From the NCBI GenBank assembly GCA_016206785.1, contig JACQQV010000048.1, positions 1,889-65,888 of the forward strand: a stretch of 64,000 nt of DNA, read 5' to 3'. A program made the translations under genes and the position numbers. This document shows positions 6,825 to 38,178 of this stretch, in pieces. This stretch comes from Candidatus Omnitrophota bacterium. GTDB lineage: Bacteria; Omnitrophota; Gorgyraeia; JACQQV01. Every line of letters begins with the position of its first letter. Within the stretch, counting starts at the first letter, position 1. The notes beneath the pieces are model-generated. The model saw only the letters and a program-made list of their open reading frames with translations, made no database searches and had not been told where the DNA came from.

Positions 6825-8021
6825 ATGTGGCGGTATCATCCAAAAAAACAGATCGGTGTTGGGGGTATTCATCTGGGTGGGAAAGAGAGACGGTATCTTA
6901 ACGAAGTGATCAAAAGCAACCGCCTCTCCTACGGGCCCTTCTCACAAAAATTGGAAAAACATTTTGCAGAACTCCACGATTGCCGTTACGCCGTCTTTTG
7001 CAATAGCGGCACCAGCGCCCTTCACATCTCCCTTGCCGCCCTCAAGGAAAAATACCGCTGGTCCGATGGGGACGAAGTCATTGTTCCTGCGGTCACCTTT
7101 GTGGCCACCAGCAACATCGTTCTTCATAATCATATGAGACCTGTTTTCGTAGATGTCGACCCCAAGACCTACACCATCAACCCTGCCTTGATCGAAAAAA
7201 AGCTTTCATCAAGGACAAGGGCCATCATCCCCGTCCACCTTTTAGGTCTTCCCTGTGATATGGCTTCCCTCCTTTCCATCTGCCAAAAATACAACTTAAG
7301 AATGATCGAGGATTCTTGCGAGACGATGTTTGCAACCTACAAAGGGAAGAAGGTCGGTTCCTTCGGGGAGATCGGTTGCTTTTCAACTTACATCGCCCAC
7401 TATATCGTGACAGGGGTGGGTGGGTTGGCAACCACCAACGATCCCGCGCTGGCGATTCTCTTAAAGAGCCTCATGAATCATGGAAGAGATGCCATCTACC
7501 TCAATATTGATGATGACCAGAATGTCGAGAAAGAGAAACTTTTTGAAATCGTTTCCAAAAGATTTTCCTTCGTCTACCTCGGTCATAGTTTTCGTGCCAC
7601 GGAATTGGAGGCGGCGATTGGGCTGGCACAACTTGAAACCAAAGACGAGATTATCCGCAAAAGAAAAAAGAACGCCTCTTTTTTCATCCAAGGATTAAAA
7701 GACCTTGAAGACAAAATCCAACTCCCATTTATTCCTCCGGACCGCGACCATATGTTCATGCTTTTCCCCATCGTCTTGAGAAATGAATCTAAGAAAGAGT
7801 TGGTGAACTTTCTCGAAGCAAATGACATTGAAACCCGAGATCTTCTTCCTTTGACCAATCAACCTATCTATAGGAGACTCTTCGGGGATATTGAGAAGGA
7901 ATACCCCGTCGCGAAGTGGTTGAATGAGAATGGCTTTTATATCGGCTGTCATCAGTATCTGCAAAAGAAAGAATTGGTCTACATGGTTGAAACGCTTCAC
8001 CGTTATTTTAAGTCCCCTTGA
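6825..8021 (+). CDS. DegT/DnrJ/EryC1/StrS-family PLP-dependent sugar aminotransferase (ArnB/Per-like)
   Basis: The motifs 'FCNSGTSALHISL', 'VIVPAVTFVATSN' and 'GCFSTYIAHYIVTGVGG' (active-site Lys region) were seen. Confidence 0.85.
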   Translation: MWRYHPKKQIGVGGIHLGGKERRYLNEVIKSNRLSYGPFSQKLEKHFAELHDCRYAVFCNSGTSALHISLAALKEKYRWSDGDEVIVPAVTFVATSNIVLHNHMRPVFVDVDPKTYTINPALIEKKLSSRTRAIIPVHLLGLPCDMASLLSICQKYNLRMIEDSCETMFATYKGKKVGSFGEIGCFSTYIAHYIVTGVGGLATTNDPALAILLKSLMNHGRDAIYLNIDDDQNVEKEKLFEIVSKRFSFVYLGHSFRATELEAAIGLAQLETKDEIIRKRKKNASFFIQGLKDLEDKIQLPFIPPDRDHMFMLFPIVLRNESKKELVNFLEANDIETRDLLPLTNQPIYRRLFGDIEKEYPVAKWLNENGFYIGCHQYLQKKELVYMVETLHRYFKSP

Positions 8022-8029: not shown

Positions 8030-8884
8030 ATGCCTAAGATTTCGGTCATTGTGATTTCCTTAGACGGTTCCCGGGAGGAAAACGTTCCGAGGCTCCTCGA
8101 GGATATCCAGAGCCAGACAGTCAAGGATCAGGAGCTTTGTGTGATTACGCGTGTCTCACCCAATGGCAAGGCGAGGAATGAAGGGATTCGGAAAACAGGA
8201 GGAGAATTTCTGATCTTCTTGGACGACGATGTACGGCTCGGTCACGCAAAAGTGTTTGAAAATCTCCTTCGACCCTTCGATGGAAATGAGAAAATCGGGA
8301 TGACAGGAGGTTCCATCCGTATCCCTCCTGATGCAAACTTTTTGATGCGTCGCCTTGGAAGTGAACTTCCGCGATGGCAAGTGCCTATCGTGAAGAGTCC
8401 GAAGGAGAGTGATCTTGTGACGACCGCCTGTTGTGCGATTCCGAGAGAGGTCCTTGAAAAGGTTGGGCTTTTTCACGAAGGACTCTGCCGCGGGGTAGAT
8501 CCAGAATTTCGCGCCAGACTCCGACAGGCGGGTTACAAAATTATTCTGATGCCGGACACCTATTTTTTTCATCCTCTTCCGCGCACGCTCAGAGGACTGG
8601 TTTCGTTCTCTTTGGCACGTGGGATGGCGGCGGGCTATGGGGCGCGATATTATCCGGAGCTCCAGTATGAGGTCCCTCCCTTGGGGAAGGAGTCTTGGAA
8701 AGAGAGACGCTCCCTTTTATACCGCTCCTTTCGCAAGGTCTGGTCGATCATTCAGTCGCTTTTAACGTTCAAGTTCCTTCGCCTCATCGCCGATCTCAGT
8801 TATGCAATAGGTTTTTTGGCGTTTTATCTGAAGAGACTCTGTACACACGATCAAGAGGGATCTCATCGTGCGAAGACCTCTTAA
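8030..8884 (+). CDS. Family 2 glycosyltransferase
   Basis: The sequence 'MPKISVIVISLDGS' and 'LIFLDDDV' is GT2. A TTG at 8018 is an alternative start. Confidence 0.75.
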   Translation: MPKISVIVISLDGSREENVPRLLEDIQSQTVKDQELCVITRVSPNGKARNEGIRKTGGEFLIFLDDDVRLGHAKVFENLLRPFDGNEKIGMTGGSIRIPPDANFLMRRLGSELPRWQVPIVKSPKESDLVTTACCAIPREVLEKVGLFHEGLCRGVDPEFRARLRQAGYKIILMPDTYFFHPLPRTLRGLVSFSLARGMAAGYGARYYPELQYEVPPLGKESWKERRSLLYRSFRKVWSIIQSLLTFKFLRLIADLSYAIGFLAFYLKRLCTHDQEGSHRAKTS

Positions 8885-10085
8885 AATCCTTTTTGTGGCC
8901 GATGTCCCGATCAGGGATCCTTCCAGCGGCTCTTCCCGGATGCTTCAGGGATATGCCCTTGAATTGACACGCCAAGGGCATCAGGTCTTTGTGTTGACGC
9001 GCGGAGAAAAATTCTTTGCAAACGAAGAAACATGGGAAGGGATCCGGATCACCTCTTTCGGGGTTTGGCGACTTAACACATTGACCTTTTTCCTTTCATC
9101 CCTTTTGAACAGCTTTCGTCACTTTGAACGCCTCACCCGGCGGGAATCTTTCGATCTCATCCACTTTCAGCAGGAGCTCTCTTCTCTCGGAGTGCTTCTT
9201 TCGAGGAGAAGTCGCAGCTTCCCCCGGTTCTTCAGTTATTATTCTGCTTGGCATACGGAATATGCCTCTCGGCATGGCAAGGCCCCCCGTATTTTTTTCT
9301 TGATGGTCTTCTGGAGGAGCCTCAATATTTTTCTCCGGAGAATTTGGAAGGCGTATGCGATGTCCCGATGCCATCGGATCACCGTATTAAGCCAATTTTC
9401 ACGGCAGGAGCTTCCGATTCTGTATGGGCCTTTGCATGTGCCGGTGCGATGGATTCCGGGCGGGGTGGATACCGACCGCTTTTATCCGACTGCCGACAAG
9501 AAAAAAATCCGCCAACAGCTCGGCGGCTCAGACGGTCACTGGCTTTTTTTGACGGTCCGTAATTTGGAGCCGCGGATGGGGGTGGAGGTGTTGATTGATG
9601 CAGTACAAAAGGTGCTCAAAAAGAGGAACGACTTCAAACTCTGGATCGGAGGAACGGGGCCGACGGAGAAAAAATTGCAGGAAAAGGTAAAGGCCTTAGG
9701 ACTGTCAGAAGTCGTTTCGTTCGTCGGACTCATTCCCGAATCGAAACTCCCTCTTTATTATCAAGCGGCCGACCTTTTCATTCTTCCGACGCAATATATG
9801 GAAGGATTTGGGCTCGTGACCATTGAGGCCCTTGCGTCGGGGACTCCTGTTTTGGGAACCCCAATCGGCGGGACACAGGAAATCTTGGCCGGACTCCATC
9901 CCGATCTTCTCTTTAGATCCACGACTGCAGAGGCGATGGCCGAAAAAATAGTGAGCTGGATGGAGGGAGGACACCGCGTGGTCACTCTAGAAGCGTGTCG
10001 GGAGTATGCCGTGAACCGTTACACCTGGAGGAAAGTTGTGGAGACCCTTCAGGGTGTTTATGAGGAACTGTTGCAGGGCCGATGA
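8868..10085 (+). CDS. Family 4 (GT-B) glycosyltransferase
   Basis: The C-terminus 'EGFGLVTIEALASGTPVLGTPIGG' is a GT4 signature. The start is GTG. Confidence 0.8.
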   Translation: MRRPLKILFVADVPIRDPSSGSSRMLQGYALELTRQGHQVFVLTRGEKFFANEETWEGIRITSFGVWRLNTLTFFLSSLLNSFRHFERLTRRESFDLIHFQQELSSLGVLLSRRSRSFPRFFSYYSAWHTEYASRHGKAPRIFFLMVFWRSLNIFLRRIWKAYAMSRCHRITVLSQFSRQELPILYGPLHVPVRWIPGGVDTDRFYPTADKKKIRQQLGGSDGHWLFLTVRNLEPRMGVEVLIDAVQKVLKKRNDFKLWIGGTGPTEKKLQEKVKALGLSEVVSFVGLIPESKLPLYYQAADLFILPTQYMEGFGLVTIEALASGTPVLGTPIGGTQEILAGLHPDLLFRSTTAEAMAEKIVSWMEGGHRVVTLEACREYAVNRYTWRKVVETLQGVYEELLQGR

Positions 10086-11026
10086 AAAATCCACTCCGCT
10101 CAAAGCGGCGCATGAAAAAGATGATTCAGATTTTTTCGGAAGGGACAGGACTCCAAGCCGTCGCACGGCGCTTCGTCCACCCTCGATACCCCTTGCGGAT
10201 CCTTCTCTATCACAGCATTTCGGATACGTGGGAGGACGATTTAAGCGTTCCCGTAGAAGCCTTCAGGGAACAGATGGCGTATCTCGCCGATCATTATCAC
10301 GTCATCCCGCTTGAGGAAGCGTGCCGAAGGTTAGAGGAGGGGGATCCTTTTTCGGAAAAGACGGTGGTCATGACCTTCGACGACGGCTACAGGGATAATT
10401 TTGATCGGGCGTATCCGATTCTCGAAAAATTCCGTCTTCCGGCCACCATTTTTCTTTTGATCGGTGGCATTGGGACAGAAAAAAGGTGGCCGCCGGATGC
10501 GGGGGAACCTCACGGGCCGTTGGATCATGAACTCCTCAGCTGGGAGGAGGTGCAACAGATGCAGCGGGGGGGTCTTGTCACGTTCGGGAGCCACACGATG
10601 AGTCATGCGCTTTTTTCTGATCTTTCACCCCAACAAGCGAGAGAGGAGATCTCCACATCGAAACGCCTTCTCGAGGAAAAACTTGGAAAGGGATTGTACG
10701 CCTTCACTTATCCATTCGGCACCGCTCTTGAGGCGACCGATTCGGTCAAACATCTGGTACGCGAATCCGGATTCTACTGCGCCTGTACCGCGATGATCGG
10801 CGGAAACGGAAAAGGGAGTGATCTTTTTGCCCTCCGCAGAACACCGATCGAGTGGAGTGACGGCATGGATTTATTCAAAAAAAAATTGGAAGGTGCGCTG
10901 GATCTTCTTGCATTCAAAGATTCTCGGTTCGGACAGACCCTCAAAGGGTGGGTAGGACCTTTCTTCGGGATCCGGACGTTCCGGCAACGGAGAGAGAAAC
11001 TTCTGCAGCAAGAAAAGGGGAAATAA
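10082..11026 (+). CDS. Polysaccharide deacetylase (NodB homology domain; ArnD-like deformylase possible)
   Basis: The motifs 'VMTFDDGYRDNFDRAYPILEKFRLPATIFL' and 'SHTMSH' were seen. Confidence 0.8.
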   Translation: MKNPLRSKRRMKKMIQIFSEGTGLQAVARRFVHPRYPLRILLYHSISDTWEDDLSVPVEAFREQMAYLADHYHVIPLEEACRRLEEGDPFSEKTVVMTFDDGYRDNFDRAYPILEKFRLPATIFLLIGGIGTEKRWPPDAGEPHGPLDHELLSWEEVQQMQRGGLVTFGSHTMSHALFSDLSPQQAREEISTSKRLLEEKLGKGLYAFTYPFGTALEATDSVKHLVRESGFYCACTAMIGGNGKGSDLFALRRTPIEWSDGMDLFKKKLEGALDLLAFKDSRFGQTLKGWVGPFFGIRTFRQRREKLLQQEKGK

Positions 11027-11029
11027 GAA

Positions 11030-11815
11030 ATGTCTTTCGGAAACGTTGTGAAGAAACTCTTTTATGCCTTCGGATTTACAATCCGTCGCAGCAAGATCAG
11101 CAGGACAATGTTAAAAGAAGTCCTCGATCATGTTCAAAAATTTCCGTTCAAACCAAAGACCGTCATCGATATCGGCGTCGGTTACGGAACCCCTGTCCTC
11201 TATGAGGCTTTCAAGGAGGCGACATTTCTCTTGATAGAGCCCCTCAAGGAATATGAGGATGTTCTTCAAAAAATCGTCCGCCGGTATCAGGGAAGCTATG
11301 TTCTCGCAGCAGCAGGGAAGAAAAGAGGGAATGTCATCCTTCATGTTCATCCTGTCTTGAGCAGTTCCTCCCTTTACGAGGAGTCGGAGGGCCGCCAGGC
11401 GGACGGATCTCCCCGGGAAGTCCCGATGGTCACGCTGGACGAGCTCTGCAGCGAGAAAAAACTTTCCGGGCCTTATCTTGTCAAAATAGATACGCAGGGA
11501 GGAGAACTGGATGTCCTGGAGGGGGCAAGGGGCATCCTGAAGGAAACAGAAGTTGTTCTCCTTGAGGTTTCTCTTCTCCCGCTATTTAAAAATGGGCCCC
11601 AACTGTATGATGTGGTCTCTGCGATGAAGAGATGGGGATTTGTTGTCTATGATGTTTTTAACACGCACCACCGTCCCCTCGACCATGCCCTTGCCCAGGT
11701 CGATATGGCCTTTGTCAGGGAAGATGGTCTCTTCAGAAAAACTCCTTATTATGCAACAGAGGCACAACGCGAAACGTTCAACCTTAAAAAAGAGCACTTT
11801 CACTCTGTGGAGTAA
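11030..11815 (+). CDS. FkbM-family methyltransferase
   Basis: The motifs 'VIDIGVGYGTP', 'IDTQGGELDVLEGA' and 'VLLEV' were seen. Confidence 0.75.
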   Translation: MSFGNVVKKLFYAFGFTIRRSKISRTMLKEVLDHVQKFPFKPKTVIDIGVGYGTPVLYEAFKEATFLLIEPLKEYEDVLQKIVRRYQGSYVLAAAGKKRGNVILHVHPVLSSSSLYEESEGRQADGSPREVPMVTLDELCSEKKLSGPYLVKIDTQGGELDVLEGARGILKETEVVLLEVSLLPLFKNGPQLYDVVSAMKRWGFVVYDVFNTHHRPLDHALAQVDMAFVREDGLFRKTPYYATEAQRETFNLKKEHFHSVE

Positions 11816-11819: not shown

Positions 11820-13760
11820 ATGCGCATTATCCTGTTGACCCGGATGGACCGTCTTTCAGGGGCGAGGATCGCTCAGGAGATGATCCGGGCAGGTCAACCT
11901 CCCGTCGCGGTGGTCGTCGAGAAAACGCTCTCCTTCGGCCCGACCACCTTCCGGGTGATTTCCGAGGCGATCCGGATCCACGGAGTTTCCAAAGTCGCGG
12001 TAAAGGGATGGAAAATGGCCCGGACGAGGGCAAGAGGTCTTTTTCGGAAATGTTTCCCCAGCTTTGTTCATCCTCCCCACCTTTACGATGCAATTCAGGA
12101 CGTGCTCCGGGATCATCCTCTTCCCTATTTTTCGACGGAAGATCTCAACAGTCCAGCCTCTCTTAAGTTTATCCGAGAAAGACAACCGGATCTTCTGGTT
12201 GTCGCCAATACCGGCCTTTTGAAGAAACCGCTATTGGAAATTCCTCCCAAAGGGAGCCTCAATCTTCACTTGGGTCTTTTGCCGAAATACCGAGGCCTTG
12301 ACTCGATGGAATGGGCCCTTTCCCGTAGAGAGGAGGAGGTCGGTGTCACGATCCATTTTGTCGATGAGAAGATCGATCATGGCCCGATCCTTCTCCAGAA
12401 GTCATTCAAGGTAGATCCGAAGGAGTCGGTGGAAGCATTAACCGAACAGGCGATCCAGATCGGTTCGCATCTTATGGTCGAGGCGATCTCTCTTTTGGCG
12501 GAAGGAAAAGCGAAGTCGATCCCGCAGGATGAAGCGAAGGCGAGTTACTTTTCCCGTTTCCCGCGTAAGGCGCGAAGAGAACTTGGAAAGAGAATTTCTC
12601 AGAAAGTAAAAGTCCTTCATGTGATCACCCGGCTCGATCGGGGAGGCTCTTCGGAAAATACGCTTCTCACCCTTTTGAGGTTGGACCCTTCACGCTATGA
12701 ACTGTCCCTCATTTATGGAAAGACGACGGAGTTCCCTGAAGAAAGGATGAATGAGGCGCGAAAAGCGGGCATCCTATTGCTTCCCCTTAAAGAGATGATC
12801 CGCTCCATTCATCCATGGAAAGACCTCATCGCGTTTTGGAAGCTTTACCGATGGATGCGGAAGGGCGGTTATGATCTTGTGCACACCCATACTTCCAAAG
12901 CAGGAATTCTTGGGAGGTTCGCCGCAAAATATGCGGGCGTGCCGAGAATTGTGCATACCCCCCACGGTCATGTCTTCTACGGGTATTTTAGCCCCATGGT
13001 CCATCGGGGGATTATTTGGATCGAACGTTTTGCAGGGTTTTTTACAGATCGTCTCGTGACGCTGACCCAGCGTGGGAAAGAAGAACACCTCCGGTACAAA
13101 ATTTTACCTGAACATCGGATCACCTGGGCCTACAGCGGAATCGATCTTGAGGCCTTTCGCCGCGGAGATGGGAAAGAAGACGCTTTTCCCTCGCCGGAAA
13201 AAGGGCCATGCGTGGGGATGATCGGGCGACTCGCACCGATCAAAGGGCACCTCTACTTCCTTCAGGCGCTTCCGTCCGTCATCCGAGAGATTCCGGAGTT
13301 AAAGGCACTTCTCGTCGGGGATGGTCCTTTGCGGCAGGAATTGGAGAAAGCATGTTCTACTCTTGGAATCCAACATCATGTCCTTTTTCTGGGCGAACAG
13401 GAAAGGATTCAGGCGATTCTGAAGAGGTGTGATGTCGTGGTCTTAAGTTCACTGAACGAGGGAATGGGACGAGTTCTTCTGGAAGCCCAGGCGATGGGAA
13501 AGCCGGTGATCGGAACCCGTGTGGGGGGGATTCCGGAAGTCATTCAGGAAGGGAAAACAGGGTATCTCGTGCCACCCAAAGATCCGCAGGCCCTTGCAGA
13601 AAAACTTCTTTTATTGTTGAAAGATCCTGAAAAAGGAAGAAAAATGGGTGAAGCGGCAAGGATTTGGGTGGACGAGACTTTCAGCGTTCAGGAGATGGTG
13701 AGGCGGATCGATGCCGTTTATCAGGAACTCCTCAAGGAGAAACCAATTTCCCGTGGTTAA
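11820..13760 (+). CDS. Fusion protein: N-terminal formyltransferase domain (Fmt/ArnA-N/WbkC-like) plus C-terminal GT4 glycosyltransferase
   Basis: The N-terminal domain has 'NLHLGLLPKYRGLDSMEWAL..GVTIHFVDEKIDHGPI' (HxSLLPxxRG formyltransferase core). The C-terminal domain has 'EGMGRVLLEAQAMGKPVIGTRVGGIPE' (GT4). Confidence 0.75.
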   Translation: MRIILLTRMDRLSGARIAQEMIRAGQPPVAVVVEKTLSFGPTTFRVISEAIRIHGVSKVAVKGWKMARTRARGLFRKCFPSFVHPPHLYDAIQDVLRDHPLPYFSTEDLNSPASLKFIRERQPDLLVVANTGLLKKPLLEIPPKGSLNLHLGLLPKYRGLDSMEWALSRREEEVGVTIHFVDEKIDHGPILLQKSFKVDPKESVEALTEQAIQIGSHLMVEAISLLAEGKAKSIPQDEAKASYFSRFPRKARRELGKRISQKVKVLHVITRLDRGGSSENTLLTLLRLDPSRYELSLIYGKTTEFPEERMNEARKAGILLLPLKEMIRSIHPWKDLIAFWKLYRWMRKGGYDLVHTHTSKAGILGRFAAKYAGVPRIVHTPHGHVFYGYFSPMVHRGIIWIERFAGFFTDRLVTLTQRGKEEHLRYKILPEHRITWAYSGIDLEAFRRGDGKEDAFPSPEKGPCVGMIGRLAPIKGHLYFLQALPSVIREIPELKALLVGDGPLRQELEKACSTLGIQHHVLFLGEQERIQAILKRCDVVVLSSLNEGMGRVLLEAQAMGKPVIGTRVGGIPEVIQEGKTGYLVPPKDPQALAEKLLLLLKDPEKGRKMGEAARIWVDETFSVQEMVRRIDAVYQELLKEKPISRG

Positions 13761-15201
13761 GAAAACCGCTTTTCTCTGCGGCGTTTTTTTCTTCGCCTTT
13801 TTTGTTGCCGCTCGTGCAGACTCCCTCTCTTCTCACAAACGGGTGGAGGCGGCTTTTCATTTCCATTCCACCTATAGTTTTTTAGGGGAAACCTCTATCG
13901 AGGAGATCGCCACCCTTGCCGCACAACGGGGAATGGATGCCATCTTTTTGACGGATGATGCACTTGTCAAGATCACGTACGGTGTTCCGCCGTTTCGAAA
14001 CATTTTTCGGGTCACTTTCGAGAAAAATTCCATCTATCATCTGGGGCTCTGGCGGTATCTCGATGAGATCGCGAAGGTACAAAAGAAGGTGCCATCCGTC
14101 CTTCTTTTTCCGGGGATGGAAGTCTCCGCCTTCCACTATTGGCAGGGATTTCCTCCGCGGGGAGCCACGGTCCGCGACTGGAACAAGCATATGATCGTTT
14201 TCGGATTCAGGAAAGAAGACGATTTCCGTCACCTTCCTATTCTCGGGAATGGTCTCGCCTTTTACCGTCCATTTGATCTTCGGGATCTTTGGAGACTTTG
14301 GGGAATCGTACCGGTTCTTTTCGGTATCTTGATGATCCGTATGCCGTTTTCTTCTTGGCGCAAAGGAGGATTTGTAGTCATAGGGATCGGTCTTCTGGGA
14401 CTCTTGGATCAATTTCCGTTTCGTTCCCCCATTGCAGACCCCTACAGCGGGAAGACGGCTGTCAAACCGTATCAGGCGGTGATCGATTATACGAATGCCC
14501 ATGGAGGATCCGTTTTCTGGGCCCACCCTGAGGCAGCATTAATTCCTCACAAGAGCGGCCCGGTTTCCCTTTTAACCGATCCCTATCCGGAGATGCTCCT
14601 CCGGACGCATGACTATACCGGTTTTTCCGTTTTTTATGAAGGATGGGATATTCTGGCGCAGCCGGGCGGGCCGTGGGATCAGGTGCTCCTGGAGTACTGC
14701 CGAGGGATTCGGCACAAACCCGCTTGGGCGATCGGGGAGCTCGATTTTCAGAAAGAGGGAAGGGCGGACGTCTGGATCGGAAATGTGAAGACGGTCCTCT
14801 TCGTGGAGGAGAAAACGCCTTCGGCGATGCTTGAGGCGATCCGTCTCGGAAGGATGTATGCCGTGCGTCGCTCTCCGGAGGCGGAACTTCGGCTCGATCA
14901 TTTTGAGGCGATCGATGCGGAAGGAAATCCGCTTGCGGAGATGGGGATGGATGTCATGATTCCACCTCCCATTCGGATTCATCTCGGAATTTCCCGATCC
15001 GACGGGAAGGAGGGGACCATTCGGTATCGTCTGGTTCGGAATGGGGAAGTCCTCAAAGAGGGAAACGTGGCACTCCCTTTCGAGGTGACTATCGAGGAGG
15101 AAATTCCGATCGGTCAAAAGTCTTATTACAGATTGATGGTGGAAGGGGATCAGGGAAACTTCCTTATCACCAATCCGATCTTTGTGACGGGGAAGCGATG
15201 A
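13711..15201 (+). CDS. Secreted or membrane PHP-like domain protein (CpsB-type phosphoesterase-like) with internal hydrophobic segments
   Basis: The signal-like N-terminus is 'KKTAFLCGVFFFAFFVAARA'. The PHP-like 'FHFHSTYSF...GMDAIFLTDD' follows. A GTG at 13753 is an alternative start. Confidence 0.5.
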   Translation: MPFIRNSSRRNQFPVVKKTAFLCGVFFFAFFVAARADSLSSHKRVEAAFHFHSTYSFLGETSIEEIATLAAQRGMDAIFLTDDALVKITYGVPPFRNIFRVTFEKNSIYHLGLWRYLDEIAKVQKKVPSVLLFPGMEVSAFHYWQGFPPRGATVRDWNKHMIVFGFRKEDDFRHLPILGNGLAFYRPFDLRDLWRLWGIVPVLFGILMIRMPFSSWRKGGFVVIGIGLLGLLDQFPFRSPIADPYSGKTAVKPYQAVIDYTNAHGGSVFWAHPEAALIPHKSGPVSLLTDPYPEMLLRTHDYTGFSVFYEGWDILAQPGGPWDQVLLEYCRGIRHKPAWAIGELDFQKEGRADVWIGNVKTVLFVEEKTPSAMLEAIRLGRMYAVRRSPEAELRLDHFEAIDAEGNPLAEMGMDVMIPPPIRIHLGISRSDGKEGTIRYRLVRNGEVLKEGNVALPFEVTIEEEIPIGQKSYYRLMVEGDQGNFLITNPIFVTGKR

Positions 15202-15896
15202 CCTTTTCAGCGCACCAACCTCAGTATCTCCCCTGGATCGGCTATTTTGACAAGATCGCCAAAAGCGATCAGTTCGTTTTCTTGGATCATGTGCAGTATA
15301 AGAAAAGGGAATTTCAGAATCGAAACAAGATTCGTACACCTCGAGGAGCCCTTTGGCTCACCGTTCCCGTGATCACGAAAGGCCGTTACATGCAGCTCCT
15401 CAAGGAGGTTCAAATCGATAACTCTGTCGATTGGCCGAAAGACCATTGGGCCTCTCTCAAGACCAATTATACCAAGGCCCCTTTTTTTAAAACCTATGCC
15501 CCTTTTTTTCAGGAGACGTACGGACGGAAATGGGAGTCTCTTTCCGAACTCAATATCCATCTCATCCGGTTCCTCCTCAAATGCTTTGGCATTGCCACAC
15601 CTCTTCTCATGGAATCCCACATCGGGACGGAGACACTTTCCACGGACCGATTGATTGAACTGGCCAAAAAACTCAACGCGACCACCTATCTTTCGGGGAG
15701 TGGAGGAAAAGAATACCTGGAGGAAGGGAAATTTGAAAAAGCCAACATCCGTTTGATGTACCAAACATTTCATCACCCGACGTATCCCCAACTCTTTATG
15801 AAATCACCGACCGACTTTCTTCCTCATCTTTCTGCAGCCGATCTCTTGTTCAACAAAGGGGGGGAGGCGAAGGAGTTTTTCATTGGGCGATCTTGA
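15198..15896 (+). CDS. WbqC-family protein (O-antigen/glycan cluster-associated)
   Basis: The N-terminus 'MTFSAHQPQYLPWIGYFDKIAKSDQFVFLDHVQY' is typical of WbqC. The start makes an ATGA overlap. Confidence 0.75.
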   Translation: MTFSAHQPQYLPWIGYFDKIAKSDQFVFLDHVQYKKREFQNRNKIRTPRGALWLTVPVITKGRYMQLLKEVQIDNSVDWPKDHWASLKTNYTKAPFFKTYAPFFQETYGRKWESLSELNIHLIRFLLKCFGIATPLLMESHIGTETLSTDRLIELAKKLNATTYLSGSGGKEYLEEGKFEKANIRLMYQTFHHPTYPQLFMKSPTDFLPHLSAADLLFNKGGEAKEFFIGRS

Positions 15897-16808: not shown

Positions 16809-17624
16809 ATGTATAACGCATACTGGGGCCTTGAGGAAAAACCTTTTGAGAACACCCCCGACCCCCGATTTATTTTTTACACCCCTCAGCATGAAGAAGG
16901 GCTTTCCCGCCTCCTCTATGCGGTTCGGGAAGAAAAGGGGGCCGCCCTTCTCACCGGTCTTTTCGGATGCGGGAAGACCCTCTTGGGTCGTGTTCTCTTT
17001 AAAGAGTTGGAAAAGGATATTTACCGAGTCGCTTTTATCACCAATCCTCAGATGGAATACATTGAACTGGTGATGGCCATTGCGATAGCCCTCGGCGCAC
17101 GAGACCTTCCCACGCGTCGCTCCGATGTCCTCGCCAATGTCGTCCTCCAAGTGCTTCAGCAAACCCTCCAAGACAATGCCCGTGATGGAAAAAAGACCGT
17201 GGTCATCATTGACGAGTCCCACATTATCGAAGACAAGCATGTTTGGGAGGGGTTAAGGCTTCTTCTTAATTTTCAGGCGGATGATAAATTTCTCATGACC
17301 CTCATTCTCTTGGGGCAACCGGAACTGAAGGAAAAGATCGAAAGTTTTAAACAGTTTTCCCAGCGGATCGCCATCCGTTGCCATGTCAGTTCCTTAAGCG
17401 AAGAGGAAAGCAAATCCTATGTGGTCCATCGGCTGAAGATCGCAGGACGAGAGATCCCGCTTTTTACACCGGAGGCCTTGCGTTTTATTTATGGGAAATC
17501 AGGAGGGATTCCGCGGCGGATCAACAGCATCTGTGATCTGGCGCTTCTTTCCGGTTTCGGAAAAAGTTCCAAGGAAATTGATCTCGCCACACTTCAGGAA
17601 GTGGTACGGGACATCGAAGGATAA
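16809..17624 (+). CDS. ExeA/GspA/MshM-family AAA+ ATPase
   Basis: The N-terminus 'YWGLEEKPFENTPDPRFIF' is the ExeA signature. The Walker A is 'GLFGCGKT'. The Walker B is 'VVIIDESH'. Confidence 0.8.
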   Translation: MYNAYWGLEEKPFENTPDPRFIFYTPQHEEGLSRLLYAVREEKGAALLTGLFGCGKTLLGRVLFKELEKDIYRVAFITNPQMEYIELVMAIAIALGARDLPTRRSDVLANVVLQVLQQTLQDNARDGKKTVVIIDESHIIEDKHVWEGLRLLLNFQADDKFLMTLILLGQPELKEKIESFKQFSQRIAIRCHVSSLSEEESKSYVVHRLKIAGREIPLFTPEALRFIYGKSGGIPRRINSICDLALLSGFGKSSKEIDLATLQEVVRDIEG

Positions 17625-17634
17625 AGGAGGACTC

Positions 17635-18270
17635 ATGAATATTCTTGCCATTGGGGCGCATCCGGATGACATTGAATACGGATGCGGAGGGGCGATTGCC
17701 AAATATAGCCGCTTGGGACATCAGGTCTATCTACTCATCATGACAAAAGGGGAGATCGGGGTTGGCGGAAAAGGATCCATTCGCCAGAACGAGCAGGTCC
17801 GGTCCTCTAAAATCCTGCGGGCCCAAAAGGTCTTCTGGGGAGGGTATAAAGACACGCAGATCTCCCTTGGGAAAGAGCTCATCACCCGAATTGAAAAGAC
17901 GGTTAAAGCGGTCAATCCCACCTTTATCTTTGTGAACTATTTGGACGATACCCATCAGGACCATCGGGCGGTCGCGCAGGCAACGAACACAGCGACCCGA
18001 TACACGAAGAACGTCCTTTTCTATGAAGTGCCGAGCACGCAGAACTTTAACCCCTCCGTTTTTATCGATATCCAGGGGGTGCTCAATCTGAAACTCGCAG
18101 CCCTTGAGGCCCACGCCTCCCAGGTCACCGCGACAAAGATCAAGGATCTCACCATTTTGGACAGTGCCCGCTCAAACGCGATCTTCCGGGGCATTCAGGG
18201 GAGGGTGAAATATGCCGAGGCCTTTGTCCCTTCACGCCTCTTCATCGCGATCGGGAAAAATTCCTTATGA
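17635..18270 (+). CDS. PIG-L/LmbE-family N-acetylglucosaminyl deacetylase
   Basis: The N-terminus 'MNILAIGAHPDDIEYGCGG' and 'HQDH' were seen. The RBS AAAGGAGG lies 5 nt upstream. Confidence 0.8.
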   Translation: MNILAIGAHPDDIEYGCGGAIAKYSRLGHQVYLLIMTKGEIGVGGKGSIRQNEQVRSSKILRAQKVFWGGYKDTQISLGKELITRIEKTVKAVNPTFIFVNYLDDTHQDHRAVAQATNTATRYTKNVLFYEVPSTQNFNPSVFIDIQGVLNLKLAALEAHASQVTATKIKDLTILDSARSNAIFRGIQGRVKYAEAFVPSRLFIAIGKNSL

Positions 18271-19400
18271 AAGACTTTACTCTTTTTGTTGCCGCAATCC
18301 TTTTCGGCCTTATCTTGACTCCCTTGGCAAGAAAGGCCGCCGTTCGTTATAAAATTTTAGATTATCCCGAGTCGAGAAAGATGCACGAAAGACCGACGCC
18401 CCTTTTGGGAGGGGTGGCCATTTATCTCGCTTTTCTATTTACCCTCGGCTATCTGGCCTTGACCTCTTCCTTCGCGCACACACGACCCTTCCTGGGAGTT
18501 CTTCTTGGCGCAACACTCATTTTGGTTGTGAGCCTTTTCGACGATATCCGAGAGCTCTCCACCTTCACACGGCTTCTTTTTCAGTTTTTGGGAAGTTTCA
18601 TCATGATCCTCTTCGGCGTCAAAGTCTCTTTTTTGCCTCCTGGCATTTGGGGGGATATCGGTGAAATCGTGATTACCTTTTTATGGGTGATCGGGATCAC
18701 CAATGCCATGAACTTCTTGGACGGTTTGGATGGCTTGGCCTGTGGCTTAAGTATCATTGCAGGAATCTTTTTCTATGTGGTCGGAAAGGAGCTCCATCAA
18801 CTTTACTTTGCAGGGTTAGTATTGGCCCTCGCCGGTGTCTGTTTGGGATTTCTGCCTTATAATTTTCCCGTTCCTTTTCTTTATTTAAAAAGAGCACTGA
18901 AGGGGGGCCAAAAGAGTTCCCGTCCGCTGGGAGGAGATCGGGCACGGATCTTTTTGGGAGATTGCGGGGCCACCTTTCTGGGGTCCTTTTATGCGGGGAT
19001 TTCGGTCATGGGGGATCTGGCCACCCACAATGTCATCGCCTTGTCGGTTCCCATTCTTCTTTTGGGCATTCCGATTTTTGACACCACCTTCATTACCATC
19101 ATGCGCATCCGGGAAAGAAAGATCTCGGATCTTACAGGGTGGCTCGCCTATGCCGGGAAGGATCATTTTCACCATCGCCTTGTGGATCTCGGATTTTCGA
19201 ACGGTGGAGCGGTCTTTTTTATCTATTGCGTGGCCATTGTGTTAGGGATCGATGCGATCCTCATTCAAAACATGGATCCTTTCGGTGCCCTACTCGTTCT
19301 TTTAAAAGTGGCGCTTCTTTTTATTCTGATTGCTCTGCTCATGGTGACGGGGAGACGTACAGCGATAGAAGAGGAAAAGAAACAGAGAAAAACTCTTTGA
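18267..19400 (+). CDS. Polyprenol-phosphate sugar-1-phosphate transferase (GT4 MraY/WecA family)
   Basis: The motif 'ITNAMNFLDGLDGLA' and about 10 transmembrane segments were seen. Confidence 0.8.
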   Translation: MKDFTLFVAAILFGLILTPLARKAAVRYKILDYPESRKMHERPTPLLGGVAIYLAFLFTLGYLALTSSFAHTRPFLGVLLGATLILVVSLFDDIRELSTFTRLLFQFLGSFIMILFGVKVSFLPPGIWGDIGEIVITFLWVIGITNAMNFLDGLDGLACGLSIIAGIFFYVVGKELHQLYFAGLVLALAGVCLGFLPYNFPVPFLYLKRALKGGQKSSRPLGGDRARIFLGDCGATFLGSFYAGISVMGDLATHNVIALSVPILLLGIPIFDTTFITIMRIRERKISDLTGWLAYAGKDHFHHRLVDLGFSNGGAVFFIYCVAIVLGIDAILIQNMDPFGALLVLLKVALLFILIALLMVTGRRTAIEEEKKQRKTL

Positions 19401-19446: not shown

Positions 19447-20355
19447 ATGAGTGTTGATGTGGAGGGGGCAACCCATCTTTATGATGAGGCGACGGCGCTC
19501 ATGAGGAGGATTTTCCAGCAGGCCGAACAGAACGAACCGATTGATGGGAAAGAGATCGCAGAATTGGTTTGGCGCCTCGTAGAGCATATGACGCTGGGGG
19601 ATAAGGGGCTTGTTTATTTCACCAATCGCTCAACACCTCGGAATTACTTCATCGCCCAGTCTGTCAATGTCTGCATTCTTTCCCTTTTGGTCGGCGGGGC
19701 GTTAGGCTATGATACCTCCAAACTGCACGAATTGGGGGTGGCTGCACTTCTCCATGACATTGGGATGGTGAAGGTCCTCAAGATCGCCACCCAGCCGAGG
19801 AAATTGACCCCCGAAGAATTGGAAGAGATCCGGAAACACCCGACGTATGGGGTCCAGATTCTCCAGAAGATCGATCTGTTGCACGAATCGACCCTCTTCG
19901 TCTGCCGGGAGCATCGTCGGAGAAAGTGGGGAAAAGCCCCCGCCTCCCCCAGCGAGAAACTCGCAAGAGAATATGCGCAAATCGTGGGGACCATTGATAT
20001 CTATGTGGCGATGACACAGCCCCGCCCTTACCGGGAAGCCAAACTTTCTCATGAAGCGGTTCGGGAGCTGATCGGTACAGCGCTGGAAATTTTTGATACC
20101 CGCGTCATGAAAACCCTCATTAACCAGATTGGTATTTATCCGATCGGGTCGTGGGTGAAGTTGAACACAGAAGAGATCGCGCGGGTGGTGGGGCAGAACC
20201 AAAATTTTCCCCTCCATCCGATCGTCGAAATCCTTTTTGATCCGAAGGGCCATTTCTTAGAGACCACGAAGACATACGATCTCTTCAAACAACAGATCCT
20301 CTATATTAAAGAACCGGTCGATTATCAGAAATTGCAACTGTCTGGAAAAGAGTGA
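19447..20355 (+). CDS. HD-domain phosphohydrolase, HD-GYP-like but with a degenerate GYP motif
   Basis: The HD core 'ALLHDIGMV' is present. 'EHRRRKWGKA' sits where HHExxDGxGYP is expected. Confidence 0.65.
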   Translation: MSVDVEGATHLYDEATALMRRIFQQAEQNEPIDGKEIAELVWRLVEHMTLGDKGLVYFTNRSTPRNYFIAQSVNVCILSLLVGGALGYDTSKLHELGVAALLHDIGMVKVLKIATQPRKLTPEELEEIRKHPTYGVQILQKIDLLHESTLFVCREHRRRKWGKAPASPSEKLAREYAQIVGTIDIYVAMTQPRPYREAKLSHEAVRELIGTALEIFDTRVMKTLINQIGIYPIGSWVKLNTEEIARVVGQNQNFPLHPIVEILFDPKGHFLETTKTYDLFKQQILYIKEPVDYQKLQLSGKE

Positions 20356-20376
20356 CAGAAGGAAGGGGGTGATCGA

Positions 20377-20550
20377 GTGAAAGGATTAGCCAATGCACTT
20401 TTGGTGATTGCAGCACTCAGCCTTGTGGTCGGCATCATTTCACGGTTAACGATGCAACCAATCGGGGGAGGGCTTGAGGCCCATGCATTTCTTGATTTTG
20501 CCCAGACCCTTCTCTTGGCCGTGATCGCGCTTTCCGTCCTTAAAAAGTAA
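20377..20550 (+). CDS. Possible small hydrophobic protein (57 aa, two predicted transmembrane helices), GTG start
   Basis: The translation is 'VKGLANALLVIAALSLVVGIISRLTMQPIGGGLEAHAFLDFAQTLLLAVIALSVLKK'. It is below the ORF-track size cutoff. A purine-rich SD-like sequence lies upstream. Confidence 0.3.
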   Translation: MKGLANALLVIAALSLVVGIISRLTMQPIGGGLEAHAFLDFAQTLLLAVIALSVLKK

Positions 20551-20561
20551 ATCACGCACAA

Positions 20562-20603
20562 GGGCCCCCCGTTTCACTGGACTTCCAGTGAAACGGGGGG
20601 CTC
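20562..20603 (+). promoter_or_regulatory. Very stable hairpin with a 16-19 bp perfect stem (CCCCCCGTTTCACTGG / CCAGTGAAACGGGGGG) and no U-tract; candidate RNA structure or protein-binding palindrome
   Basis: Seen directly in the sequence. It lies about 27 nt upstream of the RBS and ATG of the sensor gene. Confidence 0.5.
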
Positions 20604-20626
20604 TCCTCGAAGAGGTGGGGGGTCCA

Positions 20627-22042
20627 ATGACAAATTTTTTTAAGACACTTTCGCTCACGCCGCAGAAATTGCGCTATAAATTAGGAATCGCTTTCTTTCT
20701 CATGTCACTCATCCCTCTCTTTGTTTGCACCTTTTTTGTTCTTGCCTATATCTACCCCGAAACCCGCTATGATTTTACAATCGGTTCTTCAGCGATGTTC
20801 GTCATTATTGCCATCACCCTTTTTATCACCCTTCTCGGTTTTAGTGTCATCCGACAGATGGTGGATCCTGTCGTGACCATCGCCCGCAAGGCGAAGCAGG
20901 TTGCGGAGGGAAGGACAGACGCCGCCTTTGACATCGTTCGAGAAGATGAGATCGGGGACTTGAGCGATTCTCTCACTAAGATGACCTCGCGGATCAAAGA
21001 GACGATCACCGAGCTCCATGCTTATAGTGAAAAGACAAAAGAGATTAACATTGAGATCCAACAAAAAGTGCTCACCCTTTCGAACCTTCTCCAGATCGGG
21101 AACCTCATTTCTGCTGGGACCCCCTTGGAGGAGGTGATCGGAGCGATCATCGAAAAATTGGGTCAGTTGGAGATGACCGCCTCTTCGTTTATCTACGTTT
21201 TGGAGTCGGAAGGAGTCCTCATACGCAGATGGGTTCAGAACATTGAGCCATCCCTCCTTCCGGAAAGGGTCACTTTTGGGAGCGGACTCTTGGGCAAGGT
21301 GGCGAGCCAAGGAGAAGGATTGATCGTCGATTCCAAGGGAGGGGGTGGGCTGGAGACCAAAGAATTAAGGTACACCCTTCGCCTTAAGAATCTTGCAATC
21401 TTTCCGGTGACGTCCCGTGGCGTGGTGGTGGGACTCTTAGGCGCAGGGAATAATCTGGATCAGTTCTTCTTCCGCGAGGATGATCTTGAAACGATCAGAG
21501 TTTTTGTAAAACAGATTTCGATTGCGGTCGAGAACGATCTCTTGACGAAACGGGCGAAAGAGCTTCAGATGAAAGATGAACTCACAAAGCTTTACAACGA
21601 GAAGTTCACGCGCCAGCGCCTCGAAGAAGAGATCAGGCGGGCGATCCGTTATCAAAGGCCCTGTTCCCTCATCCTTGTCGATATCGATCATTTCCAGATG
21701 GTGAAAACCCAATCGCAACCAGAACTGTTGAAACAAGTGGCCAAGGAGATCGAAAAGCAGATTACAGAGGTGGATCGGGCCGCACGGTTTGACCGGGATC
21801 TTTTCGCCCTGATCATTCCGGAGAGAAACAAGAAAGAAGCGACCCAATTGGCGGAGAGTCTCCGCCGGACGATCGAAGAGCAATATGGCCAAGGAAGAGG
21901 GTTTCAGGGGCAAAAGGTCACCATGAGTGCCGGTGTTTCGGAAAATCCGATTGATGGGTCCACGGCAGAAGCGCTTATTCAAAAAGCGAAAGAGGCGCTC
22001 ACCACAGCAAAATCGCTGGGAAAGAATCGCGTGGTCGCGTAG
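20627..22042 (+). CDS. Membrane-anchored HAMP-GAF protein with a degenerate GGDEF domain (likely non-catalytic)
   Basis: A transmembrane segment, a HAMP domain and a GAF-like region are followed by a GGDEF fold ('LILVDIDHFQMV', 'RFDRDLFALIIPE' instead of RYGGEEF, and 'GKNRVV'). A start at 20588 is an alternative. Confidence 0.7.
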   Translation: MTNFFKTLSLTPQKLRYKLGIAFFLMSLIPLFVCTFFVLAYIYPETRYDFTIGSSAMFVIIAITLFITLLGFSVIRQMVDPVVTIARKAKQVAEGRTDAAFDIVREDEIGDLSDSLTKMTSRIKETITELHAYSEKTKEINIEIQQKVLTLSNLLQIGNLISAGTPLEEVIGAIIEKLGQLEMTASSFIYVLESEGVLIRRWVQNIEPSLLPERVTFGSGLLGKVASQGEGLIVDSKGGGGLETKELRYTLRLKNLAIFPVTSRGVVVGLLGAGNNLDQFFFREDDLETIRVFVKQISIAVENDLLTKRAKELQMKDELTKLYNEKFTRQRLEEEIRRAIRYQRPCSLILVDIDHFQMVKTQSQPELLKQVAKEIEKQITEVDRAARFDRDLFALIIPERNKKEATQLAESLRRTIEEQYGQGRGFQGQKVTMSAGVSENPIDGSTAEALIQKAKEALTTAKSLGKNRVVA

Positions 22043-23147: not shown

Positions 23148-23159
23148 AGGGAGTTTCGT

Positions 23160-23621
23160 GTGAGCGTAAGCAAGCGACTGATTACAAAGCAGCTGGGTGA
23201 ACTTCTGATTGAACGGGGTGTCATCACAAAAGACCAGGTTGAAAAGGCCCTCGCGGTTCAAAAAGAAGAAGGGGGCCTCATTGGTCAAATCCTCGTCAGA
23301 CTCGGCTTTACCACTGAAGAAGAAATCGCCCAGGCGCTCACTGCCCAATTCGGGTTTCCCTACCTTCCTCTCAAAAACTATGAGATTGCGGGTGATGTGA
23401 TCAAGCTTGTTCCTGAGAATGTCGCCCGGCAATATTGTCTGATTCCGGTGGACCGGATCGGGAACGCCCTTACCATCGCGATGTCGAATCCCTTAAATGT
23501 CCAAGCGCAGGAAGATATTGAACTCATTACGAAATGCAAAGTTCAGGTATTCGTTTCAACGATGACCGACATCAACGACGCCATCAACCGTTCTTATGCG
23601 CAGGGAGATAACCCCATCTAA
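23160..23621 (+). CDS. Stand-alone GspE-N/MshEN domain protein (predicted c-di-GMP-binding)
   Basis: The sequence 'LGELLIERGVITKDQVEKALAVQ' and 'CLIPVDRIGNALTIAMSNPLN' matches the MshEN fold. The start is GTG. Confidence 0.7.
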   Translation: MSVSKRLITKQLGELLIERGVITKDQVEKALAVQKEEGGLIGQILVRLGFTTEEEIAQALTAQFGFPYLPLKNYEIAGDVIKLVPENVARQYCLIPVDRIGNALTIAMSNPLNVQAQEDIELITKCKVQVFVSTMTDINDAINRSYAQGDNPI

Positions 23622-23632
23622 CGAGGACGGAG

Positions 23633-25348: not shown

Positions 25349-25349
25349 A

Positions 25350-27050: not shown

Positions 27051-27053
27051 CCG

Positions 27054-28259: not shown

Positions 28260-28260
28260 G

Positions 28261-38162: not shown

Positions 38163-38178
38163 GAAGGAAGGGGGGACG

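Follow-up and report, generated by a model that had tools for sequence, protein, structure and literature searches.

The gene at 11820..13760 (+) of the window, by which we mean the whole 64,000-nt stretch of Omnitrophota DNA analysed here, encodes a real and recurrent two-domain enzyme, in which a formyltransferase (Fmt) domain is fused to a GT4 glycosyltransferase domain. The fusion is not an obligate unit, and comparison among relatives suggests that the Fmt half is an optional add-on, always accompanied by a sugar de-acetylase. In the reading we prefer, at a probability of roughly 45%, the GT4 domain would add a sugar to a lipid-linked glycan, with the deacetylase and Fmt forming an accessory cassette which swaps N-acetyl for N-formyl.

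The fusion gene is a single open reading frame of 646 aa with an ATG start, a GGAG about 10 nt 5' of that start and no in-frame stop. It lies 4 nt from the preceding FkbM gene and its 3' end overlaps the following gene; it is therefore operonic. The first-pass annotation, which described one ORF joining an Fmt/ArnA-N-type domain to a GT4 domain, proved accurate: PF00551, PF13439 and PF00534 all score above their Pfam cut-offs, NCBIfam also matches both domains, and the motifs it had cited are present at aa 148-159 (NLHLGLLPKYRG) and aa 547-555 (EGMGRVLLE). The Formyl_trans_N domain (aa 1-250) and the GT4 domain (aa 263-640) are separated by a short basic linker (aa 251-262, 12570..12605, +), which is continuous in one frame, variable in length and sequence in the alignment, and modelled at a pLDDT of 55-65. 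Inspection of the junction revealed no plausible internal start ahead of the GT4 domain. An identical 646-aa product is encoded by one NCBI MAG and by two Logan assemblies, each built independently from its own sequencing run, and a search of relatives recovered 21 clusters of diverged full-length homologues (35-43% identity) with both Pfam domains, nearly all from Omnitrophota and one from the single-cell genome of Ca. Omnitrophus fodinae. A frameshift, a stop between the domains or an assembly artefact is thus excluded.

On the basis of sequence and modelled structure, the N-terminal domain (aa 1-250, 11820..12569, +) is assigned to the Formyl_trans_N superfamily, with predicted N10-formyl-THF-dependent activity. 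Its PF00551 match (aa 104-223) scores 93.7 bits against a cut-off of 26.1, and Pfam found no match to the OB-like Formyl_trans_C subdomain (PF02911) in the fusion protein. Neither the NCBIfam fmt model (TIGR00460, 95.6 versus a cut-off of 201.5) nor the ArnA model (NF005998, 99.3 bits versus 777) was reached. Asn148, His150 and Asp186 align with the ArnA catalytic triad N102/H104/D140 and are kept in 21/22 fusion homologues. The AF2 model of the domain (pLDDT 87, pTM 0.81) adopts a Rossmann-type formyltransferase fold, with Foldseek TM-scores of 0.70-0.72 to Fmt and ArnA-N (rmsd 2.2-3.4 Å, E ~1e-20). The Rossmann half carries a family-specific basic insert (aa 36-90, 11925..12089, +), common to the whole fusion family, with 10 K/R versus 2 D/E, two predicted helices within aa 45-78 and a low pLDDT of 51-73. 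We considered this insert as a membrane-anchoring amphipathic helix and rejected the idea, as a hydrophobic-moment scan gave no standout and the 646-aa protein has no TM segment.

The C-terminal domain (aa 263-640, 12606..13739, +) is, by sequence and predicted structure, a complete GT-B glycosyltransferase of the retaining GT4 type. Pfam assigns Glyco_transf_4 (PF13439) to aa 291-444 at 75.6 bits and Glycos_transf_1 (PF00534) to aa 456-615 at 153.8 bits, both above threshold. The Arg/Lys phosphate-binding pair and glutamate (R470, K475, E547) are invariant across 22/22 members, and the second glutamate of the E-x7-E motif (E547-x7-E555) is present in 19/22. Foldseek recovers the two-Rossmann GT-B fold, with TM-scores of 0.83 to BshA (3mbo), 0.80 to PimB' and 0.77 to PglA. 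Both domains of the fusion are equally constrained, with mean pairwise identities of 56% versus 55%.

The operon to which the fusion belongs, comprising Fmt and GT4 (fused or adjacent), PIG-L, WbqC, DegT and WecA, is conserved in 13 distinct loci. Split forms, in which Fmt and GT4 are separate adjacent genes in unchanged gene order, were found in three loci (L018, L022, L045), and versions lacking Fmt in five (L042-L044, L047, L048). The closest orthologues of the window's GT4 domain, at 56-58% identity, occupy syntenic loci without any Fmt; the syntenic orthologues in L042-L044 and L048 imply that the GT4 works without it. Domain trees (neighbour-joining on Kimura distances) indicate that fusion or loss occurred independently two or more times. 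Deep nodes of the N-domain tree have 2-40% support, and we therefore make no claim for a single GT4-associated Fmt clade.

Within the window, the fusion belongs to a cluster of surface-polysaccharide genes, those described here all being on the forward strand. Upstream lie a DegT/DnrJ/EryC1 aminotransferase (6825..8021), found in the majority of loci, some without Fmt among them; a second GT4 glycosyltransferase (8868..10085); and, overlapping the latter, a Polysacc_deac_1 de-N-acetylase (PF01522, 10082..11026), which we propose as the partner of Fmt. In the main clade, the equivalent of the second GT4 is fused within an MT-PDA-GT4 protein. The window's deacetylase is predicted to be cytoplasmic: no signal peptide, TM or hydrophobic segment was found in it, and its counterparts in relatives form the middle part of a fusion protein, flanked by MT and GT4 domains that are themselves cytoplasmic. 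An FkbM-family methyltransferase (TIGR01444, 74.9 bits; 11030..11815) separates it from the fusion gene. Downstream follow a PHP/CehA-like metallohydrolase with an N-terminal hydrophobic segment (13753..15201), kept 3' of the GT4 in L042, L043 and L048, and a WbqC-family protein (PF08889, 15198..15896). WbqC is present in 15/16 module loci whose sequence reaches past the GT4, the exception (L047) having lost the whole downstream module; we found no PDB relative, NCBIfam match or functional literature for it. Further 3' are a homologue of XrtA/PEP-CTERM-associated ATPases (16809..17624; TIGR03015 at 216.6 bits, below the cut-off of 324.5), a PIG-L family de-N-acetylase (PF02585, 87 bits; 17491..18270), which most relatives have directly 3' of the fusion or GT4, and a WecA-like polyprenyl-phosphate HexNAc-1-P transferase (PF00953, 112.7 bits; 18267..19400), a predicted initiating enzyme also kept in the module. 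No exosortase gene was identified within the examined part of the window.

The gene which co-varies with Fmt is the deacetylase; neither the GT4 nor the DegT aminotransferase does so. Among Fmt loci whose sequence extends upstream, 13/13 have Polysacc_deac_1, versus 0/5 Fmt-less loci, counts which do not represent independent events because the loci share phylogeny. DegT is found in nearly all fusion loci and also in the Fmt-less L042-L044, and L048 has the GT4 without DegT. The pairing extends beyond Omnitrophota: members of a wider short-Fmt family in Bacteria and Archaea are fused or translationally coupled to de-N-acetylases. These include fusions to Polysacc_deac_1 (P0221, P0272) and to YdjC, an unrelated de-N-acetylase fold (P0154), as well as short-Fmt genes overlapping a Polysacc_deac_1 gene in four haloarchaea, one Bacteroidota genome and L007. 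Several loci have Fmt and PDA as a self-contained pair of genes that no glycosyltransferase separates. Deacetylase neighbours in distant phyla were scored with a small profile HMM; single-query tblastn had missed the Pfam-confirmed PDA of L007. Our searches for literature on the fusion, the formyltransferase-deacetylase pairing and Omnitrophota glycan loci returned nothing relevant; the formyltransferase predicted in a paper on Halorubrum legionaminic acid is a different one.

These observations bear on two earlier suggestions. The first-pass annotation had held that sugar formyltransferases are normally stand-alone or ArnA-like. The generalization is too narrow, the wider family being fused to GT4 (in both orders, GT4-Fmt included), Polysacc_deac_1, YdjC, DegT (P0249), PMT_2, FemAB and PilZ. 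Its proposal that the fusion channels N-formylation into glycosyl transfer found no support in the analyses made here: split and Fmt-less operons exist, and Fmt tracks the deacetylase and not the GT4 or DegT. The AF2 model of the full-length protein (pTM 0.57) leaves the inter-domain geometry undefined. The fusion looks more like a means of bringing two steps of a single glycan pathway to the same place than like an enzyme in which the two reactions are obligatorily coupled.

We propose that the fusion is a bifunctional enzyme, either soluble or peripheral, which serves a Wzx/Wzy-type pathway for a surface glycan (EPS or LPS-like) in an Omnitrophota bacterium. The WecA-like enzyme would start an undecaprenyl-PP-linked oligosaccharide, onto which the retaining-type GT4 domain would add a nucleotide-activated sugar, probably HexNAc; its likeness to BshA (131.8 versus an equivalog cut-off of 273.7) and MshA (113.4 versus 462.5) remains below the family cut-offs. 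The sugar amine would most probably be made by the Polysacc_deac_1 deacetylase, two genes upstream of the fusion, and formylated by the N-domain on the same glycan. With the amine supplied in this way, deacetylase and Fmt would jointly exchange N-acetyl for N-formyl on a hexosamine residue, as an accessory cassette for decoration that has been added to a conserved core of GT4, WbqC, PIG-L and WecA. Fusion would hold both activities together at the assembly site, without being required. That the product keeps its formyl group is inferred, as are the substrates and the step order. Residues of the proposed kind, 2-N-formyl hexosamines, occur in bacterial glycans, for example GalNFoA of the P. aeruginosa O6 antigen (PMC11706664).

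The proposed order, in which a HexNAc is transferred, its acetyl group removed and the resulting amine re-acylated, resembles the logic of MshA-MshB-MshC, BshA-BshB-BshC, PIG-A/PIG-L and NodC-NodB-NodA. BshA and MshA are also the best sequence and structure matches of the fusion's GT4 domain, which has a cytoplasmic Polysacc_deac_1 encoded ahead of it and, in most relatives, PIG-L after it. In contrast to those pathways, the re-acylating enzyme here would be a folate-dependent formyltransferase, for which we know of no precedent among them, and the acceptor would presumably be a lipid-linked glycan. The top NCBIfam model for the GT4 domain is TIGR03088 (stp2; aa 263-638), a model of PEP-CTERM/XrtA glycosyltransferases, and the window has the XrtA/PEP-CTERM-associated ATPase homologue; however, 207.7 bits is well under the cut-off of 409, and stp2 proteins are single-domain. 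Counting against acetyl-to-formyl exchange are the presence of DegT in nearly all fusion loci and the Fmt-DegT fusion. Moreover, to our knowledge, all biochemically characterized sugar N-formyltransferases (ArnA, WbkC, WlaRD, QdtF, FdtF, VioF) act on nucleotide-linked amino sugars derived from a DegT-type aminotransferase, and we know of none whose acceptor is a glycoside, free or lipid-linked, that has been deacetylated.

The main contender, though an unlikely one, is transient formylation resembling the Arn pathway, whereby DegT would make an NDP-amino sugar, Fmt would N-formylate it (pulling an unfavourable transamination forward, as in ArnA), the fused GT4 would transfer it and the Polysacc_deac_1 protein would deformylate it in the manner of ArnD, yielding a cationic amino sugar. 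Formylation and transfer would then be consecutive steps, matching the earlier idea of coupling. A formyltransferase, a glycosyltransferase and a hydrolase of the Polysacc_deac_1 family together parallel ArnA-N, ArnC and ArnD of the Arn pathway, and a formylating and deformylating pair would equally predict the co-variation of Fmt with PDA. DegT (ArnB-like) in nearly all fusion loci, an SDR-GT2-PMT_2 trio at 42-2958 of the window, and the Fmt-DegT and Fmt-PMT_2 (ArnT-like) fusions of the wider family add to the resemblance. Like ArnA, moreover, the fusion joins a formyltransferase to a second enzyme from its own sugar pathway, sharing the Asn-His-Asp triad and an HxxLLPKYRG motif and superposing on ArnA-N with an rmsd of 2.2-2.4 Å. 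Unlike ArnA, it lacks Formyl_trans_C and the decarboxylase, has a GT4 as partner and carries its own basic insert. The neighbours, when considered as Arn orthologues, were rejected: DegT gave a weak sub-threshold match to the ArnB model, GT2 nothing ArnC-like, and the deacetylase matched PgaB/IcaB only, with no ArnD model. Because none of these three matches an Arn model above threshold, the locus is not an Arn operon. The persistence of DegT in L042-L044 without Fmt, and of the GT4 without DegT in L048, speaks further against transient formylation, as does the close identity of the Fmt-less GT4 orthologues, which would need a donor switch from formylated to unformylated sugar. The YdjC fusion better fits a deacetylase partner, since we know of no deformylase with that fold, and Fmt-PDA pairs with no glycosyltransferase between them are likewise difficult to accommodate.

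Improbable, in our estimation, is permanent N-formylation of the classical kind, in which Fmt would act on a DegT-derived NDP-amino sugar, as do WbkC, VioF and WlaRD, and the fused GT4 or another glycosyltransferase would incorporate a stable N-formyl deoxy-amino sugar, leaving the deacetylases to act on other residues. This is the sole biochemically documented mode of sugar N-formyltransferases, represented by the PDB relatives WbkC, FdtF, QdtF and WlaRD; the locus contains DegT, and SDR dehydratase/epimerase genes lie within or near several loci. The stand-alone enzymes (WbkC, WlaRD, VioF, FdtF, QdtF, WbtJ, Rv3404c) resemble the N-domain in fold (TM ~0.70 to WbkC) and triad, and also come from glycan loci with DegT. 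At their C-terminus they bear a small subdomain or ankyrin repeats, and their substrates are dTDP- or GDP-amino sugars, whereas the fusion has a complete GT4 as C-terminal partner and a de-N-acetylase as consistent genomic partner. Classical formylation would leave unexplained both the strict co-variation of Fmt with the deacetylase and the fusions and overlapping pairs across domains of life. That DegT and WbqC remain together without Fmt suggests, in addition, that the DegT amine is handled independently of it.

There is little likelihood that Fmt lacks catalytic activity and is attached to an ordinary GT4 in a structural or regulatory (e.g. folate-sensing) role, or that its substrate is not a sugar. 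Asn148 and Asp186 are both lost in one homologue (P0063), whose GT4 is intact, and close GT4 orthologues function without Fmt; however, the triad is otherwise universal among the members, the Fmt domain is conserved as much as the GT4, and in genomes the family is consistently found together with amino-sugar enzymes. Sequencing or assembly error joining two adjacent genes, for which the split pairs of relatives might be cited, has a negligible chance in view of the identical ORF in independent assemblies, the diverged fused homologues (one from a single cell) and the continuous linker lacking an internal start.

In several bacterial surface glycans, N-formylated sugars are immunodominant, and we know only of nucleotide-sugar formyltransferases paired with aminotransferases as characterized to date. 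The formyltransferase described here shares a polypeptide with a glycosyltransferase and is linked in the genomes of Bacteria and Archaea to de-N-acetylases of two unrelated folds, hinting at an undescribed route to N-formyl sugars. Acetyl-to-formyl exchange provides a concrete, testable candidate for 2-N-formyl hexosamine synthesis, and the natural fused, split and Fmt-less variants are material for its dissection. A bolder extension, which we offer as doubtful, is that the short Fmt family constitutes the missing enzyme class making 2-N-formyl hexosamines, such as GalNFoA of P. aeruginosa O6-type antigens. Together with a dedicated cytoplasmic de-N-acetylase, its members would replace acetyl by formyl on a glycoside or lipid-linked intermediate; they would be the first folate-dependent formyltransferases with an acceptor other than a nucleotide sugar. 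The cassette would be mobile, conserved in lineages as far apart as Omnitrophota and haloarchaea, and captured time and again through fusion with GT4, deacetylase, GT-C and PilZ partners. Were transient formylation to prove correct instead, the formyl protecting-group strategy would extend past lipid A modification. The locus displays extensive fusing of glycan-pathway enzymes in Omnitrophota, and aids the annotation of these uncultured, ultra-small bacteria.

The fusion gene occupies window 11820-13760 (+) as one ORF of 646 codons, with an ATG start, no internal stops and a GGAG about 10 nt 5' of the start. It begins 4 nt after the stop of the FkbM-type methyltransferase gene and overlaps the next gene at its 3' end, and therefore lies inside an operon. 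The first-pass annotation had described an Fmt/ArnA-N-type formyltransferase domain joined to a GT4 glycosyltransferase in this ORF, and both motifs it quoted are present (NLHLGLLPKYRG at aa 148-159, EGMGRVLLE at aa 547-555). The junction it singled out for checking (nt ~12570-12605) encodes a continuous, basic linker of 12 residues in the same frame, and no start codon usable for a separate GT4 precedes VLHVITR, the first GT4 beta-strand. Contigs from independent assemblies of two sequencing runs encode an identical 646-aa product, as does an NCBI MAG of Candidatus Omnitrophica. Full-length homologues with both Pfam domains form 21 clusters at 90% identity (35-43% identity, 96-100% coverage). 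Both domains have diverged equally across the family (mean pairwise identity 56% for the N-domain, 55% for GT4). A frameshift or stop between the domains is therefore excluded. Among species-representative genomes the fused gene was found in eight loci, seven of them in Omnitrophota, including a single-cell genome of Ca. Omnitrophus fodinae. In public annotation the protein is named plainly "glycosyltransferase" or carries a dual COG assignment.

Pfam recognizes Formyl_trans_N (aa 104-223, 93.7 bits), Glyco_transf_4 (aa 291-444) and Glycos_transf_1 (aa 456-615, 153.8 bits). NCBIfam matches are sub-threshold, N-terminally to ArnA and Fmt and C-terminally to TIGR03088, BshA and MshA, and the GT4 domain scores below the cut-off of every named equivalog. 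Each domain is a clear superfamily member, but by curated thresholds the protein falls outside all five families. Asn148, His150 and Asp186, which align on the ArnA catalytic residues Asn102, His104 and Asp140, are conserved in 21 of 22 fusion proteins. Modelled with AF2 (pLDDT 87, pTM 0.81), the N-domain can be superposed on Met-tRNA formyltransferase and on the formyltransferase domain of ArnA (TM 0.70-0.72, rmsd 2.2-3.4 A), as well as on WbkC, a GDP-perosamine formyltransferase. The Formyl_trans_C subdomain is absent, GT4 following directly, and the Rossmann half carries a basic, family-specific insert (aa ~36-90) with two low-confidence predicted helices and no notable amphipathicity. The GT4 domain is complete, with Arg470, Lys475 and Glu547 invariant and the E-x7-E motif present; its model matches BshA (TM 0.83), PimB', PglA, HepE and MshA. 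The protein has no TM segment. A single polypeptide in a Wzx/Wzy-type glycan locus combines an intact formyltransferase active site with an intact GT4. The full-length model has a pTM of 0.57, and the relative placement of the two active sites is therefore not readable from it.

The surface-glycan locus around the fusion gene runs from an SDR epimerase/dehydratase fragment (truncated where the window begins) and, in one row with it, a small GT2 and a PMT_2-type GT-C (42-2958), through a second fusion of GT2 and a class I SAM methyltransferase (2955-4829, 624 aa), to GT9, a methyltransferase, a DegT aminotransferase, GT2, GT4, Polysacc_deac_1 (10082..11026, +), FkbM and Fmt-GT4. The opening SDR/GT2/PMT_2 row resembles the ArnA-C/ArnC/ArnT logic, in which a polyprenyl-phosphate sugar serves periplasmic glycosylation. 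Next comes a PHP/CehA-like metallohydrolase (13711/13753-15201, overlapping the fusion gene) whose N-terminus carries a hydrophobic segment. It takes the position that PIG-L holds in the main clade of fusions, and its counterpart directly follows GT4 in three syntenic loci lacking Fmt (L042, L043, L048; 37-44% identity where measured). A WbqC-family protein (15198-15896) follows, a near-constant partner of GT4, PIG-L and WecA in related loci retaining the module, for which we found no NCBIfam match, PDB relative or functional literature. Beyond a methyltransferase lies a homologue of the XrtA/PEP-CTERM-system ATPase (16809-17624; TIGR03015 216.6 bits, below the 324.5 cut-off), and no exosortase was identified in the examined portion of the window. 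PIG-L and a WecA-like initiating transferase complete the row, followed by c-di-GMP signalling genes (19447-22042: an HD_5 domain protein and a HAMP-GAF-GGDEF cyclase) and a type IV pilus/T2SS-like cluster (22074-39777: three T2SSE ATPases, T2SSF, a TPR protein, a pilin-like protein, PilM and a secretin). The main-clade order is Asn-synthase-like amidotransferase, Wzy, MurJ, a methyltransferase-Polysacc_deac_1-GT4 fusion, Fmt-GT4, PIG-L, WbqC, DegT and WecA-like. Such fusions adjoining Fmt-GT4 are very large (L003 5312-8323; L005 5439-10004; also L010, L011, L013, L014, L019 and L025): about 1000 aa for methyltransferase-Polysacc_deac_1-GT4, and 1521 aa in L005/L006, where the MurJ membrane flippase is joined to the same three cytoplasmic glycan enzymes. 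Fmt and GT4 (fused or adjacent), PIG-L, WbqC, DegT and WecA are common to 13 distinct loci, counted wherever the contig is long enough.

Fusion is one of several states of this module. In three loci (L018, L022, L045) the operon is the same, but unfused neighbouring genes encode Fmt (262-275 aa) and GT4 (384-399 aa); in L018 the two overlap by 4 nt. The nearest relatives of the window GT4 domain are four stand-alone GT4s (P0006-P0009, 56-58% identity), the GT4 domains of other fusions being more distant (37-46%). Synteny of their loci with the window is plain (GT9, GT4, PHP-like, WbqC, DegT, MT, PIG-L, WecA, HD, GGDEF), and tblastn found no formyltransferase sequence in them; this GT4 does not need Fmt. 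All replicates (100%) of a neighbour-joining tree of GT4 (200 bootstraps) placed the window domain with the Fmt-less genes, and none (0%) recovered the Fmt-GT4 fusions as monophyletic. The tree of N-domains shows two separate groups, each with 98% support: the window protein with its nearest relative, P0121, and the main clade. A reverse-order GT4-Fmt protein also exists (P0152). The Fmt-GT4 architecture was therefore gained, or lost, more than once. One further fusion homologue beyond the 21 clusters, P0063 (677 aa), has Gly for Asn148 and Asn for Asp186 in an N-domain 23% identical to that of the window, with an intact GT4 domain (42%); its lineage has kept GT4 while the Fmt catalytic residues decayed, leaving an apparent pseudo-enzyme remnant. 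The interpretation in the first-pass annotation is upheld in part: the gene is a genuine fusion that looks functional, but the fusion is non-obligate, and the suggested channelling between N-formylation and glycosyl transfer is unproven.

The tight association of Fmt is with de-N-acetylases. All 13 of the Fmt-containing GT4-module loci with upstream sequence also have Polysacc_deac_1, as a gene or as a domain, against none of five such loci without Fmt, while PIG-L, WbqC, WecA and usually DegT are present either way. A profile search with the N-domain, covering 1.84 billion representative proteins, returned 524 relatives (E <= 1e-30), most of which stand alone and are ~260 aa long. Longer members are fused, the partners being GT4, Polysacc_deac_1 (two), YdjC (a de-N-acetylase fold different from Polysacc_deac_1), PMT_2, FemAB/GNAT (both orders), DegT and PilZ, all enzymes or regulators of amino-sugar glycan pathways; the PilZ fusion (P0266) hints at c-di-GMP control of formylation chemistry. 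A small Polysacc_deac_1 (PDA) profile revealed Fmt genes directly followed by an overlapping deacetylase gene in four haloarchaeal genomes, and immediate adjacency in a Bacteroidota MAG and L007; further pairs occur in L011 and L014. Pairs in which a stand-alone short Fmt gene abuts and overlaps the deacetylase gene lie at ~9.7-11.4 kb in each of haloarchaeal L028, L030, L032 and L036, at 8941-10492 in the Bacteroidota MAG (L038) and at 8001-9586 in L007; this pairing is conserved in both Bacteria and Archaea. The window deacetylase has no hydrophobic segment, and in relatives the domain is embedded between cytoplasmic ones, placing its action ahead of export. Among NCBIfam models it matches PgaB/IcaB-type deacetylases and not ArnD.

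The reading we favour, at slightly under even odds (roughly 0.45), is that the GT4 domain would add a sugar, probably HexNAc, to an Und-PP-linked oligosaccharide, that the cytoplasmic deacetylase would expose the amine, and that the Fmt domain would re-acylate it to an N-formyl hexosamine, with N10-formyl-THF supplying the formate. Transfer, deacetylation and re-acylation are the logic of NodC/B/A and MshA/B/C, with a folate enzyme taking the last step here. Such 2-N-formyl hexosamines occur in bacterial antigens, as GalNFoA (PMC11706664). The main rival is an Arn-like route, in which an NDP-amino sugar made by DegT would be formylated by Fmt, transferred by the fused GT4 and deformylated by Polysacc_deac_1. 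Under this scheme the two fused domains would carry out successive steps, as the channelling idea has it, and the co-variation of Fmt and deacetylase is predicted equally well; we nevertheless think the scheme unlikely, since DegT persists without Fmt, Arn-type model matches are lacking, and a YdjC fusion and self-contained Fmt-deacetylase pairs occur. Permanent formylation of the DegT product, the classical scheme, leaves the deacetylase association unexplained and seems to us improbable. A non-catalytic Fmt domain is contradicted by the conservation of its catalytic residues and is very improbable.

Within the literature library searched, we found no paper that mentions formyltransferase and glycosyltransferase domains together, and none on this formyltransferase-deacetylase pairing. 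As a Rosetta-stone case the Fmt-GT4 fusion, taken alone, is modest; of greater interest is the accessory deacetylase and formyltransferase cassette that it indicates. A possible, if rather doubtful, reading is that formyltransferases acting on non-nucleotide acceptors may provide a new route to 2-N-formyl hexosamines.
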